IMG/VR virus record: IMGVR_UViG_3300021256_000056
Location: 32,001 to 96,000 of that record
Length of the DNA stretch: 64,000 nucleotides
Source of the DNA: a virus
Lineage: Duplodnaviria > Caudoviricetes
Direction: 5' to 3' (one strand)
In this document: positions 7,415 through 32,765 of the stretch, piece after piece
Position numbering within the stretch: the first letter of the stretch is position 1
How the letters are laid out: the number at the start of each line of letters is the position of its first letter
The notes under the pieces: model-generated
Seen by the model: the letters and a program-made list of their open reading frames with translations, nothing else
Database searches by the model: none
What the model was told of the DNA's origin: nothing
Translations under genes and position numbers: made by a program

Positions 7415-8140
7415 CTATTCATCTTTGTCTTTTAGCGTTTTCTTTTTTCGATGAAACCTTTTACTATTCTTATTTAATGAGCCAAAGTTGGGGGTTAGGC
7501 TATGGCAATTAGGGCACAGTAGTTGCAAGTTTTCAATACGGTTATTTGTACAATCACCATCAATATGGTGAACTTCGAGAGGAACATTCCCCGTAAATTC
7601 GTTAACTTCGCCCCAGTGACATTTTTCGCATTTATTGTCGTGAAGGCTCATTAAGTATTCCTTAATAAACACTGGCACCTGTGAAGCTCCCCTCAAAAAA
7701 TTTTCTCCCCCTAGCCACCTTTCTAATTTGCTTATTTTTGGTGGGGTTTCATTTGTATATTCTTCGTATTCTCTTTCTGGAAACTTTGAACGTATGGAAT
7801 CTGAAATTTTTTTCTTGGTTTCAAAACTGCGTGGGCCACGTTTTACGTTATTATATTTCGCGGCACATGACGAGGAACAAAACTTATTGAATCTTTGTTC
7901 AAAACTCAATTTTCTCCCGCATTCTTCACAATACCTGGGATTTTTATCATATGTTTCCCTTGTTTGTTTGTTTTGATAATATTGTCCAGTAATATTCGCT
8001 TTCTGTTTTATCCTATTAATAAAACGCCAAGAAGCGCCATTGGGCCTCCTTCCAAAATAATTTATAACCTCTTTCTCGGAACAACATGCCTCGAACGCAG
8101 ATATTATTTCTTCAATAGAAATCTCTTCGACCTTTTTCAT
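7415..8140 (-). CDS. free-standing HNH endonuclease
   Basis: CEKC..LEVHHIDGDCTNNRIENLQLLCPNCHS. Confidence 0.9.
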   Translation of the reverse strand: MKKVEEISIEEIISAFEACCSEKEVINYFGRRPNGASWRFINRIKQKANITGQYYQNKQTRETYDKNPRYCEECGRKLSFEQRFNKFCSSSCAAKYNNVKRGPRSFETKKKISDSIRSKFPEREYEEYTNETPPKISKLERWLGGENFLRGASQVPVFIKEYLMSLHDNKCEKCHWGEVNEFTGNVPLEVHHIDGDCTNNRIENLQLLCPNCHSLTPNFGSLNKNSKRFHRKKKTLKDKDE

Positions 8141-10052: not shown

Positions 10053-10101
10053 TTTCTTAATTTTTCACAAATATACATTTATTTTTTATAAAAATCAATA
10101 G

Positions 10102-10216
10102 TCGGGGAAGAAGGAATCGAACCTCCGCTAACGGCACCCAAAGCAATTTGACGCTGCTGTTAGTTTTCAATACTGAAAACATTTAAAACGTCGTGCTACC
10201 ACTACACTATTCCCCA
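10102..10216 (-). tRNA. tRNA-Pro(UGG) with 44-nt ACAGCA-module insert at 29/30 (10145-10188)
   Basis: Removing the insert gives acggc-tttgggt-gccgt; G72/A73 Pro identity. Confidence 0.8.
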
Positions 10217-10223
10217 AAATTTG

Positions 10224-10340
10224 TGAGGAGGATGGGACTCGGACCCATGACCCACGGGTTAAAAGCCAAGGTGAGGTTGCTGTTAGTTTTCAGTACAGAA
10301 AACGTTTTATACGTTGCTCTACCAACTGAGCTACCTCCTC
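10224..10340 (-). tRNA. tRNA-Lys(UUU) with 44-nt ACAGCAA-module insert at 29/30 (10268-10311)
   Basis: Removing the insert gives acggg-cttttaa-cccgt. Confidence 0.82.
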
Positions 10341-11010: not shown

Positions 11011-11018
11011 ATATTGTG

Positions 11019-11421
11019 TGGAGATGGGCGGACTCGAACCGCCGTTTTTCAAGCTTGCAAACTGCTTTCTACGCGCTTAGTTTTCTTTATGATTCGTTGG
11101 GCACTGGTGGAAAACACACCTGAGTACTCAATATATCATTCTGGAAACGTAGCCAAACCAGACGAATGAAACTGGCCTGCCGCTCTCGATTTGATGATGC
11201 CCTCATATTGTGAATTCAACCAAGACCAAACATTCACGAGGACAATCGTCCCGACACATCCTAGGTGCCGATGGATTAGGCTTATTTGCTTAGCAAATTA
11301 AGCGGCGATTGCATAGGTGTTGTTGCCAACTAATTTTTTTGATATTTGTTTAAAGGCTAAAAATCAAAACGCCTGCGTGCTTACAATCCTCATAGATTGA
11401 AATCAAAACCAAAACATCCCC
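11019..11421 (-). ncRNA. ssrA: tmRNA, tag GNNTYAIAA
   Basis: 5' ggggatg, 3' ggcggttcgagtccgcccatctcca, internal ggcaacaacacctatgcaatcgccgcttaa. Confidence 0.93.
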
Positions 11422-12372: not shown

Positions 12373-12505
12373 ACAAGGCAGCGTGTATGCATCACCTTCT
12401 GACCTTGTAGAACGGACTTATATACATACCGTAACATTTTCGTAGTATGTAATTTCATCTGTTTTGTGTCTCCGACGAGGCTCGAACTCGTGACCCCCAC
12501 ATTAA

Positions 12506-13341
12506 CCTACCCAATATAGTTGCCTATACCATCTTACGATGTTTGAGTTTGGACCATTTCTTATCCATGCCACTTCGTGGTTTAGGTGGTGGTGTATGGC
12601 CTCTACACATTTATGCAAAAAAGCAATTTAGCCCGACGTTTTCCCAGGGGGATGTTCGTCGAATTAGCCACCATTCACGACAAGGGTTTCCCCTCGTGTG
12701 CTCCTTTCTTAGATTCACGTAAACATGAAATGCATAACCCGCTTTTAGTTTCCCTATGAAGCGGTTTTCCACATTTTTTGCACACGTGTTTGTACGTGTG
12801 GGTGTGTGTGGTTGTTTTAACCCCCTTCATATTTTTCTTTCCAGCGTAACTATCTGTTTGTGAATGGCAATTAGGACACAAAATCACTAGATTGTCGAGT
12901 TCATTATTAAAATGGTCTCCATCTTTATGATGAACTTGCAACGTTATGCTTTTACCATGCCACTCAGAAATTCCGCATTCTGGATTTTCGCACTTATATT
13001 CTTTCAGCCCCAATGAAATTAGTTTTTTCATTAATTCCGAAGATTTTATAAGTTTGTCTTTAACAAAAAAATCCTCTTTGTCTAGACCGTTGTGATTTTT
13101 ATTTCCGATGTTCGATTTTTGTCCAGTGAAATGTGAGGTATCTAGGTCGTATTCTTTCACGTATTTGTAAAACGTTCTATAATTACCACCAACAGGTTTC
13201 CATCCCACAGCACGACAAAAATCAGCAACACTAAAAACACGTTTACATATCTCTATTGCCTCTTCTTTACCAATTACATTTTTTGTCATAATAACACTTT
13301 TATAATAAATAGTGTTTAATTGGTAAAAGTAAGAAGATTTG
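12506..13341 (-). mobile_element. group I intron (IC3-like) with HNH ORF, inserted after U34
   Basis: 5' exon ends U, intron ends G; P/Q/R/S-like aattcgacgaa, cgtcgggctaaat, gtgtagaggc, aagaaatggtcc. Confidence 0.88.
12675..13289 (-). CDS. intron-encoded HNH homing endonuclease
   Basis: LQVHHKDGDHFNNELDNLVILCPNCHSQT. Confidence 0.9.
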   Translation of the reverse strand: MTKNVIGKEEAIEICKRVFSVADFCRAVGWKPVGGNYRTFYKYVKEYDLDTSHFTGQKSNIGNKNHNGLDKEDFFVKDKLIKSSELMKKLISLGLKEYKCENPECGISEWHGKSITLQVHHKDGDHFNNELDNLVILCPNCHSQTDSYAGKKNMKGVKTTTHTHTYKHVCKKCGKPLHRETKSGLCISCLRESKKGAHEGKPLS

Positions 13342-13399
13342 AAGTGTGGTGCTCTACCAACTGAGCTACGGAGACTTTCCTTAAATTACCATAAAATTG

Positions 13400-13748: not shown

Positions 13749-14466
13749 TGGGACAGGAGGGACTCGAACCCTCACCCTCCTTAGAGGACTGGTTCCTCGT
13801 ACCACTATGGCTTTCGCCACCAAAACAACTTCGAACTTGCGGGTTGGATTTTCAAGGCTTGTACACCCCCAGGTTGTCTTGTTTGTGGTCTGGACTGTAT
13901 CTTAACCATATTGAAATCTAGCTAGTAAACATCCTTATACTTATAGTCTCGTAGTTTAATGTGGGTCACGCGACCACCCCTAGCTCATATAAGCATGTTA
14001 TTTCAACTTAGGCTCCTCCTGTATCTCGTCTCTACACACTGTCTATTATTCTATATCTGCGGTCCCTTGTTCTCAGGCTATATTCATTACTGAAGTATAG
14101 TCTTGCAGTATAGATTTTAACATTGGCTCGGCATTAGCATATTATTCCTATTGGGGTTTTACAAGTTTCGCTTATAGTTTTATTCCGATATTCACGGTGT
14201 CCCACAAAACCAATATTTGAATAACTTAGCTTTCACCGAATTAGGAAGGTTCTACATAACGGGTTTCCCCGCGTCCACAGGCTACTCTCCCGTTTGGGAT
14301 TGTTTACCTTATCTATCACGCTTCGCAGCGTCCTGTGGTATGCACTCAAGTTAAACGGGCGCCTATCCGCATACAGAGTGTCTCAGTCTGTAATCTCCAA
14401 GTATAGGTTATCAGTATAAGCCCGTTGTTCATAAGACCAGCGCGTCTACCATTCCGCCACTGTCCC
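13749..14466 (-). tRNA. tRNA-Leu(UAG) split by group I intron
   Basis: Exons 14433-14466 and 13749-13797 join to ctggt-cttagga-accag. Confidence 0.9.
13798..14432 (-). mobile_element. group I intron after U34, no ORF
   Basis: U at 5' splice site, terminal G; core segments shared with introns at 26726 and 27550. Confidence 0.88.
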
Positions 14467-15947: not shown

Positions 15948-15952
15948 TTTAG

Positions 15953-16074
15953 AGCTGATGCAAGGAATCGAACCTCGGTCTGCGGCTTGGAATGCATTTC
16001 TTGATTTTTGCTGTCCGTAACCTTGTCAGAATACCTTATTTGAAAACGCTGTGCTACCACTACACCACATCAGC
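15953..16074 (-). tRNA. tRNA-Gly(UCC) with 51-nt ACAGCAA-module insert at 29/30 (15996-16046)
   Basis: Removing the insert gives gcggc-attccaa-gccgc. Confidence 0.8.
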
Positions 16075-17706: not shown

Positions 17707-17732
17707 CACGTTACACGGTGATGGTATTTTTG

Positions 17733-17807
17733 CGGGAAGAGAGGGGCTCGAACCCTCGACCTAAGGATTAACAGTCCTTTGCTACCACCAGCTGAGCTAC
17801 CTTCCCG
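17733..17807 (-). tRNA. tRNA-Asn(GUU)
   Basis: Cloverleaf, loop ctgttaa. Confidence 0.92.
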
Positions 17808-18236: not shown

Positions 18237-18240
18237 GTTG

Positions 18241-18325
18241 CAGGCGCTGGAGGATTCGAACCCCCGAGGAATTTAATCCTGCTGGTTTTGGAGACCAGTG
18301 CCTTCGACCGCTCGGCCAAGCGTCT
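18241..18325 (-). tRNA. tRNA-Trp(CCA) with long variable arm
   Basis: ctggt-ctccaaa-accag then caggattaaattcct V arm. Confidence 0.85.
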
Positions 18326-19028
18326 GTATATATTCCATTAATCCTTTTTTATCGAATGGTAGTCCGTAATGCTTAAACCATTTTCTTATAGCATTATCCG
18401 ACACTCCAAAAGACTTTCCGACTTGTAAAAAACTTCTTTTAACTAAAAAAAGATTAATTAAAGTTTCTTTTGATGGGTGATTTCTTTCCCATGCGCATTC
18501 TCGCGCTTCTATCCAATCTTCTTTGTTTGTGTGTCTTTTCTTTACTATGGTTTTAGTAGTGGATTCGTATTTATTTGAATTTTTTCCTGCATAAGTATCC
18601 GTTTGTGAATGACAATTTGGGCATAATAACATGAGATTTTCAATCCTATTATCGTCATGTATACCATTGATATGGTGGAGTTGTAATGATATCGGTTTAC
18701 CATTCCATTCGCAAATTCCACATTGTGGATTCTCACACTTATTTTCTTTTAAGCCACACTCAATTAGTCTTTTTTTTAGCCGACTTTTGTTTGTGTATAA
18801 ACTATGTTCAACTAGAATGTCATCCATGGGAATTTTTTCTCTGTAGCTTTTTGTCATTCGTTTATAAGAGAATCTTAATTCCAGCCCGAGTTCCTTTGCA
18901 AGCGCCCTTACCTCTTTATAATCTTCCCCGCCAACGTTTTCTATTCCGAGTCTATGACAAAGGTCCAACATATTAACACATTTGTCGTAATTTTCAATTA
19001 ACCTGTCTATCGCGTATTCTCGATTCAT
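18273..19028 (-). CDS. free-standing HNH endonuclease
   Basis: LQLHHINGIHDDNRIENLMLLCPNCHSQT; C-terminal HTH-like segment; reads into tRNA-Trp. Confidence 0.9.
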   Translation of the reverse strand: MNREYAIDRLIENYDKCVNMLDLCHRLGIENVGGEDYKEVRALAKELGLELRFSYKRMTKSYREKIPMDDILVEHSLYTNKSRLKKRLIECGLKENKCENPQCGICEWNGKPISLQLHHINGIHDDNRIENLMLLCPNCHSQTDTYAGKNSNKYESTTKTIVKKRHTNKEDWIEARECAWERNHPSKETLINLFLVKRSFLQVGKSFGVSDNAIRKWFKHYGLPFDKKGLMEYIQTLGRAVEGTGLQNQQD

Positions 19029-22137: not shown

Positions 22138-22154
22138 GTTTTTCGTAAATTTTG

Positions 22155-22226
22155 TGCTCCATACAGGAATCGAACCCGTCTAAGAACGTTTTAGGGACGC
22201 CCGCTCGGCCACTGAGCCAATGGAGC
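22155..22226 (-). tRNA. tRNA with CUA anticodon (amber suppressor candidate)
   Basis: gctccat/atggagc acceptor; ggcgt-ccCTAaa-acgtt; C33. Confidence 0.65.
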
Positions 22227-26674: not shown

Positions 26675-27289
26675 TGGCCCAGGCGGGACTCGAACCCGCA
26701 CGGCCCTTGCGGGCCAGCAGATTTTCTTACCACTATAGCTTTCACTACCTAAACAACTTCGAACAATCGGGTTGGATTTTCAAGGCTTTATACCCCCAGG
26801 TTGTATAGTTTGTGGTCTGGACTGTATCTTAACCATATTGAAATCTTGCAAGTGTCATACGCATAGTAAACTATAAACATTATAGGTGGAGTCTCTCAGG
26901 TTCCGCTCTTCCTATAAGAGGCTATAGTCTGTTGCCGTAATTCTATTTCAACTTAGGCTCCTCCTGTATCTCGTCTCTACACACATACGTTGCGGGGATG
27001 TCCCGAAAACAAGGCTACTTGCTGCCCTCTGCTACCTTATTAGGGTAGATAGCGTTGCAATTACTTGTTCGTACTTGGCTCGGTATTACCAACAGCGTTA
27101 ATTTTCTCCACTCCATAGAATTCAACTCATTGGCAGTAATCTTCCAATGCTTCACATCTACTTCAACGCTTCCTTGAATTTTAACCTGCTAAGGTTTCAC
27201 CGAATTAGGGAGGTTCTACATCTCTTGTTTCCAAGAGCGCACTCAAATTTTCATTAAGTCTGCCGCGTATACCATTCCGCCACTAGGCC
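26675..27289 (-). tRNA. tRNA-Leu(UAA) split by group I intron
   Basis: Exons 27256-27289 and 26675-26725 join to gcaga-cttaaaa-tctgc. Confidence 0.92.
26726..27255 (-). mobile_element. group I intron after U34
   Basis: U/G splice boundaries; shared core. Confidence 0.9.
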
Positions 27290-27512: not shown

Positions 27513-28250
27513 TGGTCCCTGTAGGACTTGAACCTACGACCATCTGATTCGTACCACCATAGCTTTTACTACCAAAATTGATTACATGAACAAATCCTAA
27601 GTACCGTATCAGCCTTAAGCCGATTATGCCTACATTATGACCGTCCTACTATAACGGTGTAATCAGTCCTAACATTGCTTCATCCTATTAGGGCACTTTA
27701 ATTTTGTTTGTGGTCTGGACTGTCTCTTAACCATATTGAAATCTTGCAAGTAAGTATTGATGTTTCGAGCATCTACCTCGCTCTTATCGAGCGGATATTC
27801 CATTACCTTCGGAAAATACAATTTCAACTTAGGCTCCTCCTGTATCTCGTCTCTACACACTGTCTAAACAAATAATTGAAATGTAGCTTAGATGTTCTAT
27901 TCTGTAATTCAAACATCAACGACTTTTCATTACATTTCCAACTAACATCGTACCTACAGACGCGATGAATTCATTTGTTTTAACATTGGCTCGGTATTAG
28001 CATATTTGGACTGTCTTCTTACACATAGATTCTAAACGACTGCTATCATTACTGAAATTCAGTTAACTATGTACTACTGTTGACAATACACCAACTAATT
28101 TAGACGATTATCCGATATATTCCTGTACATCCAAACTATAGCTTTTACCGAATTAGGGAGGTTCTACATCCAAGGTTTCCCTTGGTGCACACAATTTCTT
28201 TTCAAAGAACTAATGAGTCAGGTGCTCTAACCAAACTGAGCTAAGGGACC
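27513..28250 (-). tRNA. tRNA-Ile2(CAU) split by group I intron
   Basis: Exons 28213-28250 and 27513-27549 join to ctga-ctcataa-tcag; ggtccct acceptor is ileX-like. Confidence 0.85.
27550..28212 (-). mobile_element. group I intron after U36
   Basis: U/G splice boundaries; shared core. Confidence 0.88.
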
Positions 28251-31751: not shown

Positions 31752-32765
31752 TTATATTATTAATTCAAAATCAGTAAATGTTCTTTGGTCTTGGAGGATT
31801 TCGATAATGGCTTCTTTCCCTCCAGCTTCATACGCTTCACCAAAGTCCTTATATTTGTCCATTCTAATGTAACGAATTTTCCCTTTCAATCTCCCCCAAT
31901 CAAGAATTTTATATATCCGTTTTGTTTCCTGTATTTGCGTATCGGCGTCCAAACATATAATAATATTGGCGTTGGCTTTCTCATATAGTTTTTGATATAG
32001 AGCGTCTTCTCTTTTTAGGGTTTTACCTAAAAGCGCGATTGTATTATTTCCGTATATACAATCAAGTGCACCTTCTACGAGTGTTATATCTGCATCCCAT
32101 AATATATGTGATTCCTGGAATACTATTTCGGTTTTCTTTACACCTTCGCAATTTTTGTACTTTTGGCGCATTTTGCTGCCTGTAAAGTCTCGCCCAACCC
32201 AATAATTTAAAGTTCCATCTTCGTTATAAGAGGGAACAATGATTCGATTTCTATCAATGGGCTTTTCTTCTTCCCAGTTTGTGTATCCAATCTTAAATTT
32301 ATCAATTATGTCCTGTGTGATTTTTCTTCCCTCCAAATACTCTCTAACTTGTTTCCTGCAAACTTTCAAATCGACTCTTTTATAAGAAAGCGGAAGATGG
32401 AGATATGTTTCTTCGGTACCATTGAAAAGGCTCTTGAATTCGGGAAGCTTATAAAGTTCATTGCTGCGCATTTGCGCTACAATTCCCTCGTATTCTCTTA
32501 AATATTCTCGACCACCGTACCTGAGAATTAACTTTTTAATGCTACCCTTCATGTCGTCATCTACGGTACAGCACGACCAACACTTGTAGATACCCTTTAG
32601 GACATTCACTTCAAGGTTATATTTTCCTACTTCATTATGCCCCTTTTCCTCAATGCATCGCGGACAATTGAACTGCAACTGACCATCATCGGTGACATCA
32701 TTCTTTGGTGCCCCGAGAAAACCTGTGAGTATGTCTTGTAATCTTCTTAACTCTGGTATCTGCAT
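31752..32765 (-). CDS. DNA primase (Zn finger plus TOPRIM)
   Basis: CPRC..CWSC, VEGALD, LDAD, KDFGE. Confidence 0.85.
   Translation of the reverse strand: MQIPELRRLQDILTGFLGAPKNDVTDDGQLQFNCPRCIEEKGHNEVGKYNLEVNVLKGIYKCWSCCTVDDDMKGSIKKLILRYGGREYLREYEGIVAQMRSNELYKLPEFKSLFNGTEETYLHLPLSYKRVDLKVCRKQVREYLEGRKITQDIIDKFKIGYTNWEEEKPIDRNRIIVPSYNEDGTLNYWVGRDFTGSKMRQKYKNCEGVKKTEIVFQESHILWDADITLVEGALDCIYGNNTIALLGKTLKREDALYQKLYEKANANIIICLDADTQIQETKRIYKILDWGRLKGKIRYIRMDKYKDFGEAYEAGGKEAIIEILQDQRTFTDFELII

Follow-up and report, generated by a model that had tools for sequence, protein, structure and literature searches.

A predicted IC3-like group I intron with an HNH endonuclease gene in a jumbo-phage tRNA-Lys(UUU) gene

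The window analyzed here is a stretch of 64,000 nucleotides (nt), positions 32,001 to 96,000 of the IMG/VR virus record IMGVR_UViG_3300021256_000056 (Duplodnaviria; Caudoviricetes). On its minus strand, a transfer RNA (tRNA) gene for Lys(UUU) is interrupted by 836 nt, and this insert is quite probably a mobile IC3-like group I intron that separates U34 from U35 in the tRNA-Lys(UUU) of a jumbo phage and has a gene for an HNH homing endonuclease in the loop of P1. Judged from its sequence, the intron is real and complete; the phage host together with the HNH cargo and the Lys site is new, while the kind of intron is already known, and conceptually it is an ordinary mobile group I intron.

The interrupted tRNA-Lys(UUU) gene and its splice sites

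The virus record is 195 kilobases (kb) long and is estimated to be only 53% complete, and its source is therefore a jumbo phage. The proteins encoded in the window are at most ∼24% identical to those of any deposited phage. Between ∼6 kb and 28 kb, the minus strand holds a large tRNA array, with 35 tRNAs called by ARAGORN at default settings, a transfer-messenger RNA (tmRNA) and a CUA suppressor tRNA. The interrupted gene of this array consists of the following parts:

13375..12467, minus strand: split tRNA-Lys(UUU) gene, with the 836-nt insert after U34
13375..13342, minus strand: 5′ exon (acceptor, D arm, 5′ anticodon stem), ending in C32-U33-U34
13341..12506, minus strand: group I intron of 836 nt, starting with CAAAUC and ending with GGUAGG, with U34 at −1 and the terminal guanosine (omega-G) at 12506
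12505..12467, minus strand: 3′ exon (U35-U36-A37-A38, 3′ anticodon stem, T arm, acceptor, A73), starting with UUAAUG

When the exons were joined in silico, a perfect cloverleaf of 74 nt with the anticodon UUU and A73 was obtained, and the split gene was recovered by ARAGORN with the intron option. Uninterrupted tRNA-Lys(UUU) genes whose D arm and anticodon arm are identical to those of the window were found in five IMG/VR viral contigs (L005-L009), and in one of them (L006) the T arm is also the same; because of these matching arms, the Lys identity is fixed and the appearance of the empty site is known. An earlier note on this DNA had placed an 836-nt intron with a terminal G after U34 of tRNA-Lys(UUU), at 12467-13375, and every coordinate holds by the reading of the exons and the spliced cloverleaf.

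If the splice fell after U33, one base further upstream, omega-G would be at 12507 and the anticodon would be GUU, giving a tRNA-Asn. In either register the base at −1 is U, the intron ends in G, and the spliced product is a cloverleaf. In the register of the whole family, however, the guide GAG pairs with C32-U33-U34, whereas the alternative pairs over only 2 base pairs (bp), and the tRNA body and A73 agree with the uninterrupted tRNA-Lys(UUU) genes. In addition, a separate tRNA-Asn(GUU) is already present at 17732-17806, and all five homologous introns described below read CUU/...G/UUAA. With the guide pairing, the tRNA body and the homologous introns all opposed to it, the Asn register was rejected as scarcely credible.

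The group I fold of the insert

By its sequence, the insert belongs with the group I introns of bacterial tRNAs (IC3-like), the subgroup being assigned by resemblance and not by a subgroup-specific model. A covariance model of the core, R1, was built from 21 other short phage tRNA introns without an open reading frame (ORF); the window sequence was not included, and the model spans the core only, with P1 and P9 outside it. Against 12705..12549, R1 gave 124.7 bits (E 6e-29), with all 157 model positions aligned and posterior probabilities near 1, and the alignment placed GAG on the guide sequence of the family. In the 21-intron core alignment, 95.3% of cells were paired, compared with 33-40% when the partners were slid by 1-3 columns, and 28 of 39 pairs were changed on both sides, among them the long-range P3 and the P7 pseudoknot, by which group I architecture is defined. 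The elements of the fold were assigned as follows:

13341..13344, minus strand: 5′ strand of P1 (exon C32-U33-U34 and intron C1), pairing with GGAG at 12704..12701, with a U34·G wobble at the splice site
12701..12704, minus strand: internal guide sequence GGAG (3′ strand of P1), inside the HNH ORF
12676..12698, minus strand: P2 hairpin CACGAGGG-GAAA-CCCUUGUCGUG with a GAAA tetraloop, inside the HNH ORF
12549..12705, minus strand: catalytic core from the guide sequence to P7′ (R1 match, RF00028 at 27.2 bits, family covariation)
12673..12668 and 12592..12587, minus strand: P3 UGGUGG and P3′ CCACCA
12661..12657 and 12638..12634, minus strand: P4 CGACG and CGUCG
12652..12642, minus strand: P5 UCCC/GGGA
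∼12625..12614, minus strand: P6, short
12612..12602, minus strand: J6/7 AAAUGUGUAGAG
12601..12596 and 12557..12552, minus strand: P7 GGCCAU and P7′ AUGGUC
12586..12565, minus strand: P8, with a receptor-like CCUAAA...CAUGG
12507..12548, minus strand: P9 region, with the closing helix ACUCA/UGGGU, two GNRA hairpins (GUAA, GCAA) and then AG before omega-G

All core helices pair, and the P3/P7 pseudoknot is present together with the conserved J3/4, J6/7 and J8/7. The P8 segment is presumably a variant of the 11-nt tetraloop receptor known in P8 of Azoarcus, and the P9 region is laid out as in the family alignment of phage tRNA introns. The traits of IC3 introns were all observed, namely a compact core without P5abc, insertion in the anticodon loop, an L2 GNRA loop that has its receptor in P8, and another GNRA loop in P9. 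The IC3-like core proposed in the earlier note is thus upheld by the full-length R1 match and by the resemblance to bacterial tRNA introns. We rejected an alternative P1 made of exon ACACUU and AAGUGU (13298..13293), since such a helix would lack the U·G wobble and its intron segment forms a hairpin upstream of the ORF.

The HNH endonuclease gene and its start signal

The loop of P1 holds a protein gene and a candidate start signal:

13289..12675, minus strand: HNH homing-endonuclease ORF of 204 amino acids (615 nt), wholly in the P1 loop and intact, with no recoding needed
12677..12675, minus strand: stop codon UGA of the HNH ORF, at the P2/J2-3 border
13293..13316, minus strand: hairpin AACACU/AGUGUU, with CTATTTAT (13312..13305) in its loop, 15 nt upstream of the HNH ATG

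The protein matched phrog_10822 ('HNH endonuclease') with an E value of 6.9e-42 over residues 7-194, and 1398 database relatives were found at E<=1e-5, the nearest of which are 60-81% identical and of the same length. In 37 homologues, C100, C105, H120, H121, N133, C138, C141 and H142 are invariant, and N129 is nearly so. From this pattern, H120/H121, N133 and H142 are the predicted catalytic residues, and C100, C105, C138 and C141 the predicted zinc cysteines (CxxC pairs). In an AlphaFold model (predicted local distance difference test, pLDDT, 82.8), three N-terminal helices form a domain, a beta-beta-alpha unit follows at 118-143, and the C-terminal part resembles a zinc ribbon; the strands (118-121 and 134-137) and the helix (139-143) of the beta-beta-alpha unit were modeled with high pLDDT.

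The earlier note had described the ORF as overlapping the start of the core and as having a motif of its own, and both descriptions proved correct. The last 30 nt of the ORF cover the guide GGAG (12704..12701) and all of P2 (12698..12676). The motif CTATTTAT occurs in 17 copies in the window against 4.4 expected, and 10 of these are followed, 10-30 nt downstream, by the ATG of an ORF of at least 50 amino acids (mean for random positions, 1.3). It was found upstream of nine further ORFs, including two free-standing HNH paralogues. A motif of this type is probably the promoter or leaderless start signal of this phage. The hairpin and CTATTTAT in L1 are likely to serve as the ORF's own promoter or start signal, so that expression would be independent of the tRNA precursor; the T4 intron endonucleases, which are likewise expressed independently, offer a parallel. 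An extended form, CTATTTAT(A/T)ATAAA, recurs 10-30 nt ahead of ATG start codons; the 17 sites include 8161, 13312, 19051, 21348, 28731, 44823, 51095 and 52154.

Occupied and empty tRNA-Lys(UUU) sites in other phages

Intron-borne homologues of the HNH protein were found at the same U34/U35 site of tRNA-Lys(UUU) in five other phage lineages (38-72% identical over the best aligned segment), and the tRNA-Lys(UUU) genes that host these same-site introns have four different anticodon stems. The five introns and an ORF-less version are listed below:

L093: HNH 72% identical; contig of 260 kb; intron of 830 nt; R1 120 bits
L095/L096: HNH 72% identical; contig with a tRNA array; intron of 865 nt; R1 65 bits
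L101/L102: HNH 62% identical, with TGA=W; intron of 842 nt; R1 163 bits
L103: HNH 60% identical; contig of 181 kb; intron of 876 nt; R1 86 bits
L045: HNH 38% identical (tblastn), 47% over the 49-amino-acid HNH domain, ORF open only with TAG=Q; intron of 946 nt; R1 142 bits
L063: ORF-less version; intron of 472 nt; R1 141 bits

All tRNA-Lys(UUU) introns compared have the junctions CUU/...G/UUAA, with GAG directly 5′ of P2. P3 differs in each lineage yet is fully compensated (UGGUGG, GACGG, GCUGG, GUGUG, UCCACC, UUUCC), and the same arrangement with compensated helices in six diverged lineages argues for selection on the RNA fold. The hairpin with CTATTTAT is conserved in the L093 intron, and L103 has nearly the same 5′ exon as the split gene of the window.

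Empty and occupied tRNA-Lys(UUU) sites were both found, and the endonuclease also occurs outside introns. In a phage with TGA=W (L099/L100), a homologue of 68% identity (L099:1201-1876) is free-standing, and its stop codon runs into the start of a tRNA-Lys(UUU) gene without an intron; this arrangement may represent the endonuclease lineage in its pre-intron or post-intron state. A free-standing homologue of 45% identity lies between tRNA-Lys(UUU) and tRNA-Lys(CUU) in L098, and one of 66% identity in L105 lies ahead of an unusual tRNA-like gene whose loop reads CUUUUAA. All inspected homologues of at least 45% identity lie in or beside a Lys(UUU)-type gene. More distant homologues were found inside a Leu(UAA) intron (L021, 39%) and beside tRNA-Leu in a cultured Yersinia jumbo phage. 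When cultured phages were searched by blastn, only the HNH domain matched, in jumbo phages of Erwinia and Yersinia; of these matches, g395 of Yersinia phage fHe-Yen9-04 was inspected and is free-standing next to tRNA-Leu. This distribution is the pattern expected of a homing endonuclease that targets the tRNA-Lys(UUU) gene, and cleavage of that gene is predicted.

A protein-based locus search of IMG/VR returned distant HNH domains only, and an exact-pattern scan of IMG/VR for a 31-mer of the core gave no match. The sole match to the exon-intron junction in the IMG/VR scan (L016) is not a tRNA and was discarded as a chance match. The core at L070:60-310 has the same P1 (CUU/C...GGAG), but the GC-rich sequence around it does not resemble a tRNA and appears by eye to be protein-coding. 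This core suggests that the family may move between sites that share the CUU end of the 5′ exon.

Proposed splicing and homing, and the alternatives

The proposed mechanism follows established group I chemistry and homing. The tRNA array would be transcribed first, and P1 would arise when exon CUU and intron C1 pair with the guide GGAG, the U34·G wobble marking the splice site. The core would fold into P2 with its GAAA loop, the P3/P7 pseudoknot, P4-P6, P8 and P9. Free guanosine would then attack after U34, omega-G (12506) would enter the G site, and the exons would be ligated into a normal tRNA-Lys(UUU). The HNH gene would be expressed from its own gene-start motif; a transcript started inside the intron would have no 5′ exon and so would not compete with splicing. 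The enzyme would nick or cut the intron-less tRNA-Lys(UUU) genes of co-infecting relatives near the DNA of the anticodon arm, and repair would copy the intron into the cut gene. The intron-bearing allele would be immune because the insertion splits the target site.

Several observations weigh against this proposal, in which splicing is predicted from the sequence. Some helices are very short, with 4 bp in P1, 3 bp in P6 and no more than 2 bp in any P10, and translation could disturb folding because the ORF crosses the guide sequence and P2. Rfam gave no group I match at the gathering score, in 1 kb around the locus or in the whole 195-kb record; RF00028 reached 27.2 bits (E 2.4e-5) only when 12500-12720 was searched alone, which is below its gathering threshold of 50 bits. 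This failure is attributed to the ORF loop of 600 nt that separates P1 from the core. The search with group I models that the earlier note had called for was therefore divided in its outcome, being positive with the family-built R1 and below the gathering score with RF00028. For the protein, the Pfam scores are below the cut-offs (HNH_3, 17.4 vs 24.8; HNH, 16.4 vs 21.4), the top Foldseek rows are HNH nucleases (McrA, Cap5) but weak (E >= 0.1), and neither Foldseek nor a PDB sequence search gave a significant match for the enzyme. Metagenome scans with the 34-nt 5′ exon and with an intron-specific P4...P7 signature returned no near-identical intron or empty allele, and recent mobility is therefore unsupported. 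The nearest core in the sampled introns, that of L070, is only 75% identical.

The weak Rfam score and the very short P1 and P6 would also suit a splicing-dead relic, as would a J8/7 and a second P7 pair that deviate from the family consensus. The tRNA copy would then be a pseudogene kept only by a selfish endonuclease, and decoding would fall to the host or to the second Lys(UUU) gene of the array, at 10340..10223. Against such a relic, every core helix pairs, the family-model match is full length with posteriors near 1, the exons are undamaged, and six diverged lineages retain the arrangement, with compensatory changes in their helices; nor is the second Lys(UUU) gene free of an insert. A relic is therefore considered unlikely.

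The minimal P1, P6 and P10 would likewise be in line with a group I intron that is not autonomous and needs a protein for splicing, either the HNH enzyme doubling as a maturase or a host factor, and the overlap of the ORF with the guide and P2 could couple the functions of protein and RNA. However, family members of ∼205-230 nt that lack a homing-endonuclease gene have the same core and no protein gene at all, and the tetraloop and receptor elements that stabilize small IC3 introns are present in the window intron. We know of no HNH maturase, and only a slight chance is given to this alternative. The mobile group I intron with an HNH gene is thus retained as the reading of the locus.

Other interrupted tRNAs and related genes in the array

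The window intron is accompanied in the array by further interrupted tRNA genes, two HNH paralogues and other RNA genes:

13798-14432, minus strand: 635 nt splitting tRNA-Leu(UAG), ORF-less, with U(-1) and omega-G bounds
26726-27255, minus strand: 530 nt splitting tRNA-Leu(UAA) at the classical site, ORF-less, with U(-1) and omega-G bounds
27550-28212, minus strand: 663 nt splitting tRNA-Met/Ile2(CAU) after U36, ORF-less, with U(-1) and omega-G bounds and the guide GUG instead of GAG
19028..18273, minus strand: free-standing HNH paralogue (phrog_10822), 40% identical to the intron enzyme, between tRNA genes
8140..7415, minus strand: free-standing HNH paralogue (phrog_10822), between tRNA genes
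11016-11421, minus strand: tmRNA with the tag GNNTYAIAA (109.5 bits)
22154-22226, minus strand: CUA (amber suppressor) tRNA

The spliced products of the Leu(UAG), Leu(UAA) and CAU genes are all cloverleaves, and their inserts share a nearly identical core (GUGUAGAGACGAGAUACAGGAGGAGCCUAAG ... AAGAUACAGUCCAGACCACAAAC), to which R1 responded weakly (29.7, 27.6 and 18.1 bits, respectively). Rfam gave no match to the three, nor did its search of 541 nt over the Leu(UAA) intron, and all three inserts are missed or miscalled by default ARAGORN and Rfam. They are likely to be three more group I introns, at the classical or near-classical sites Leu.3Ug and CAU.5Ug.

In the second tRNA-Lys(UUU) gene (10340..10223, minus strand), 44 nt (10311..10268) separate position 29 of the anticodon stem from position 30, five base pairs upstream of the site that the group I intron occupies in the first gene, and without the insert the stem ACGGG/CCCGU is perfect. 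The array thus has no intact Lys(UUU) gene, and the two are interrupted by different elements. Inserts of the 44-nt type (a hairpin plus ACAGCA) were also seen in the tRNAs at 10101-10216 and 15952-16074.

In both free-standing HNH paralogues, CTATTTAT lies 13-15 nt upstream of the ATG. The 3′ end of the 19028..18273 ORF overlaps an odd 86-nt 'tRNA-Trp(CCA)' call with a long variable arm (18240-18325).

The intron family in phages and bacteria

The family was traced by the signature CTAATTCG-N35-65-AAATGTGTAGAG (J3/4-P4 ... J6/7). It was found in 76 IMG/VR contigs (L017-L092), in 53 of them inside split-tRNA calls; the split viral tRNAs are mostly Leu(UAA) at the classical site, with suppressor CUA, Ile(UAU) and Lys(UUU) as further hosts. 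The signature is also common in bacterial metagenome-assembled genomes (Patescibacteria, Gammaproteobacteria, Bacteroidales), where 77 of the 80 loci fetched (L106-L185) contain split tRNAs, for Asn, Asp, Thr, Leu and others. This occurrence in bacterial split tRNAs places the window intron in the bacterial tRNA-intron family, which is classed as IC3 in the literature (Williams 2020). Suppressor tRNA genes were seen among the intron hosts (CUA in L054, L055 and L071; UCA in L099/L100).

Comparison with known introns and endonucleases

The insertion site itself has precedents in bacteria. The number of tRNA sites was raised from four classical ones to 21 by Williams 2020 (bioRxiv 10.1101/2020.01.27.920355), whose seed alignment holds Mle24.Lys.3Ug, Mpe6.Lys.4Ug and Dba165.Lys.2Ug. 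The Lys.3Ug class (Mle24) has the same isotype and position as the window intron (CUU / intron ... g / UUAA, with U at −1 and omega-G) and, when the seed was compared by eye, the same type of P1, CUUC(A)/(U)GGAG, followed by a P2 with a GAAA loop. The suggestion in the earlier note that Lys(UUU) might be an uncatalogued site is therefore refuted for bacteria, by the criterion which that note itself had set. The catalogue of this class consists of bacterial and archaeal assemblies only, however, whereas the window intron lies in a jumbo-phage tRNA array and has an HNH gene in L1.

For phages, a full-text literature search turned up no paper on group I introns in their tRNA genes, so that the literature check proposed in the earlier note gave a mixed answer: a catalogued site in bacteria, and no published case in phage tRNA genes. 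Its statement that phage introns are usually in protein genes agrees with a review of 2014 (PMC3984707), by which every phage group I intron then known lay in a protein-coding gene, although phages have many tRNA genes. Papers on intron-rich gut phages concern protein genes. Introns in phage tRNA genes were described as previously unreported by Devoto 2019 (PMC6784885), and those reported there were short and unclassified. These 'enigmatic' introns of Lak megaphages likewise lie in tRNA genes of huge phages but have no Rfam class, whereas the window intron is predicted to be a full group I ribozyme; the 44-nt inserts are closer to the Lak type.

The IC3 introns of Azoarcus pre-tRNA-Ile(CAU) and of cyanobacterial and plastid tRNA-Leu(UAA) share with the window intron the insertion in the anticodon loop and the compact core, as well as the conserved J3/4, J6/7 (GUGUAGAG) and J8/7, an L2 GAAA loop facing a P8 receptor of the CCUAAG/UAUGG type, and a GNRA loop in P9. 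The window intron differs from them in its site (Lys U34/U35), in its length of 836 nt, which is due to the 615-nt ORF, and in an RF00028 score of only 27 bits.

A further parallel is offered by I-Ssp6803I, a nuclease of the PD-(D/E)XK family: it too combines a group I intron in a tRNA anticodon loop with an endonuclease aimed at the intron-less anticodon region, but in a cyanobacterial host and at an fMet site, whereas the window combines a phage, a Lys site and an HNH enzyme. It is encoded by the tRNA-fMet intron of Synechocystis PCC 6803 (Bonocora and Shub 2001, cited in PMC3984707). I-HmuI, I-TevIII and I-PfoP3I are, like the window enzyme, of the phage homing type but lie in introns of protein genes (PMC3984707); with such enzymes the window HNH shares an expression signal of its own inside the intron, the use of which is predicted. 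SegB of T4 (PMC2330249) sits in a tRNA cluster, as the free-standing relatives do, but is a GIY-YIG enzyme with no intron.

Implications

The anticodon arm of tRNA-Lys(UUU) may be a contested site in jumbo phages, with one HNH lineage specializing on this gene and switching between the free-standing and the intron-borne state. It is quite unlikely, though conceivable, that the interruptions of tRNA-Lys(UUU) serve the phage and are not purely selfish. If so, the 44-nt mini-insert could protect the second Lys(UUU) copy from the endonuclease, and maturation gated by the intron could time the supply of tRNA-Lys(UUU) or shield the tRNA from host anticodon nucleases. This tRNA is the classical target of such nucleases, for example PrrC.

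The window intron is part of a population of introns that is widespread in the tRNA arrays of phages and all but undescribed. That phage tRNA genes have no introns was singled out as a puzzle in 2014 (PMC3984707), and for large uncultured phages the window locus and its relatives represent the opposite. A tRNA array can hold several likely group I introns, four in the case of the window. Because standard tRNA finders and Rfam thresholds miss these introns, the tRNA sets of phages, recoding suppressor tRNAs included, are under-counted. In addition, with the HNH lineage free-standing beside tRNA-Lys(UUU), carried in the intron, or lost from a remnant without the endonuclease gene, the site provides a natural series for the union of an endonuclease with an intron.

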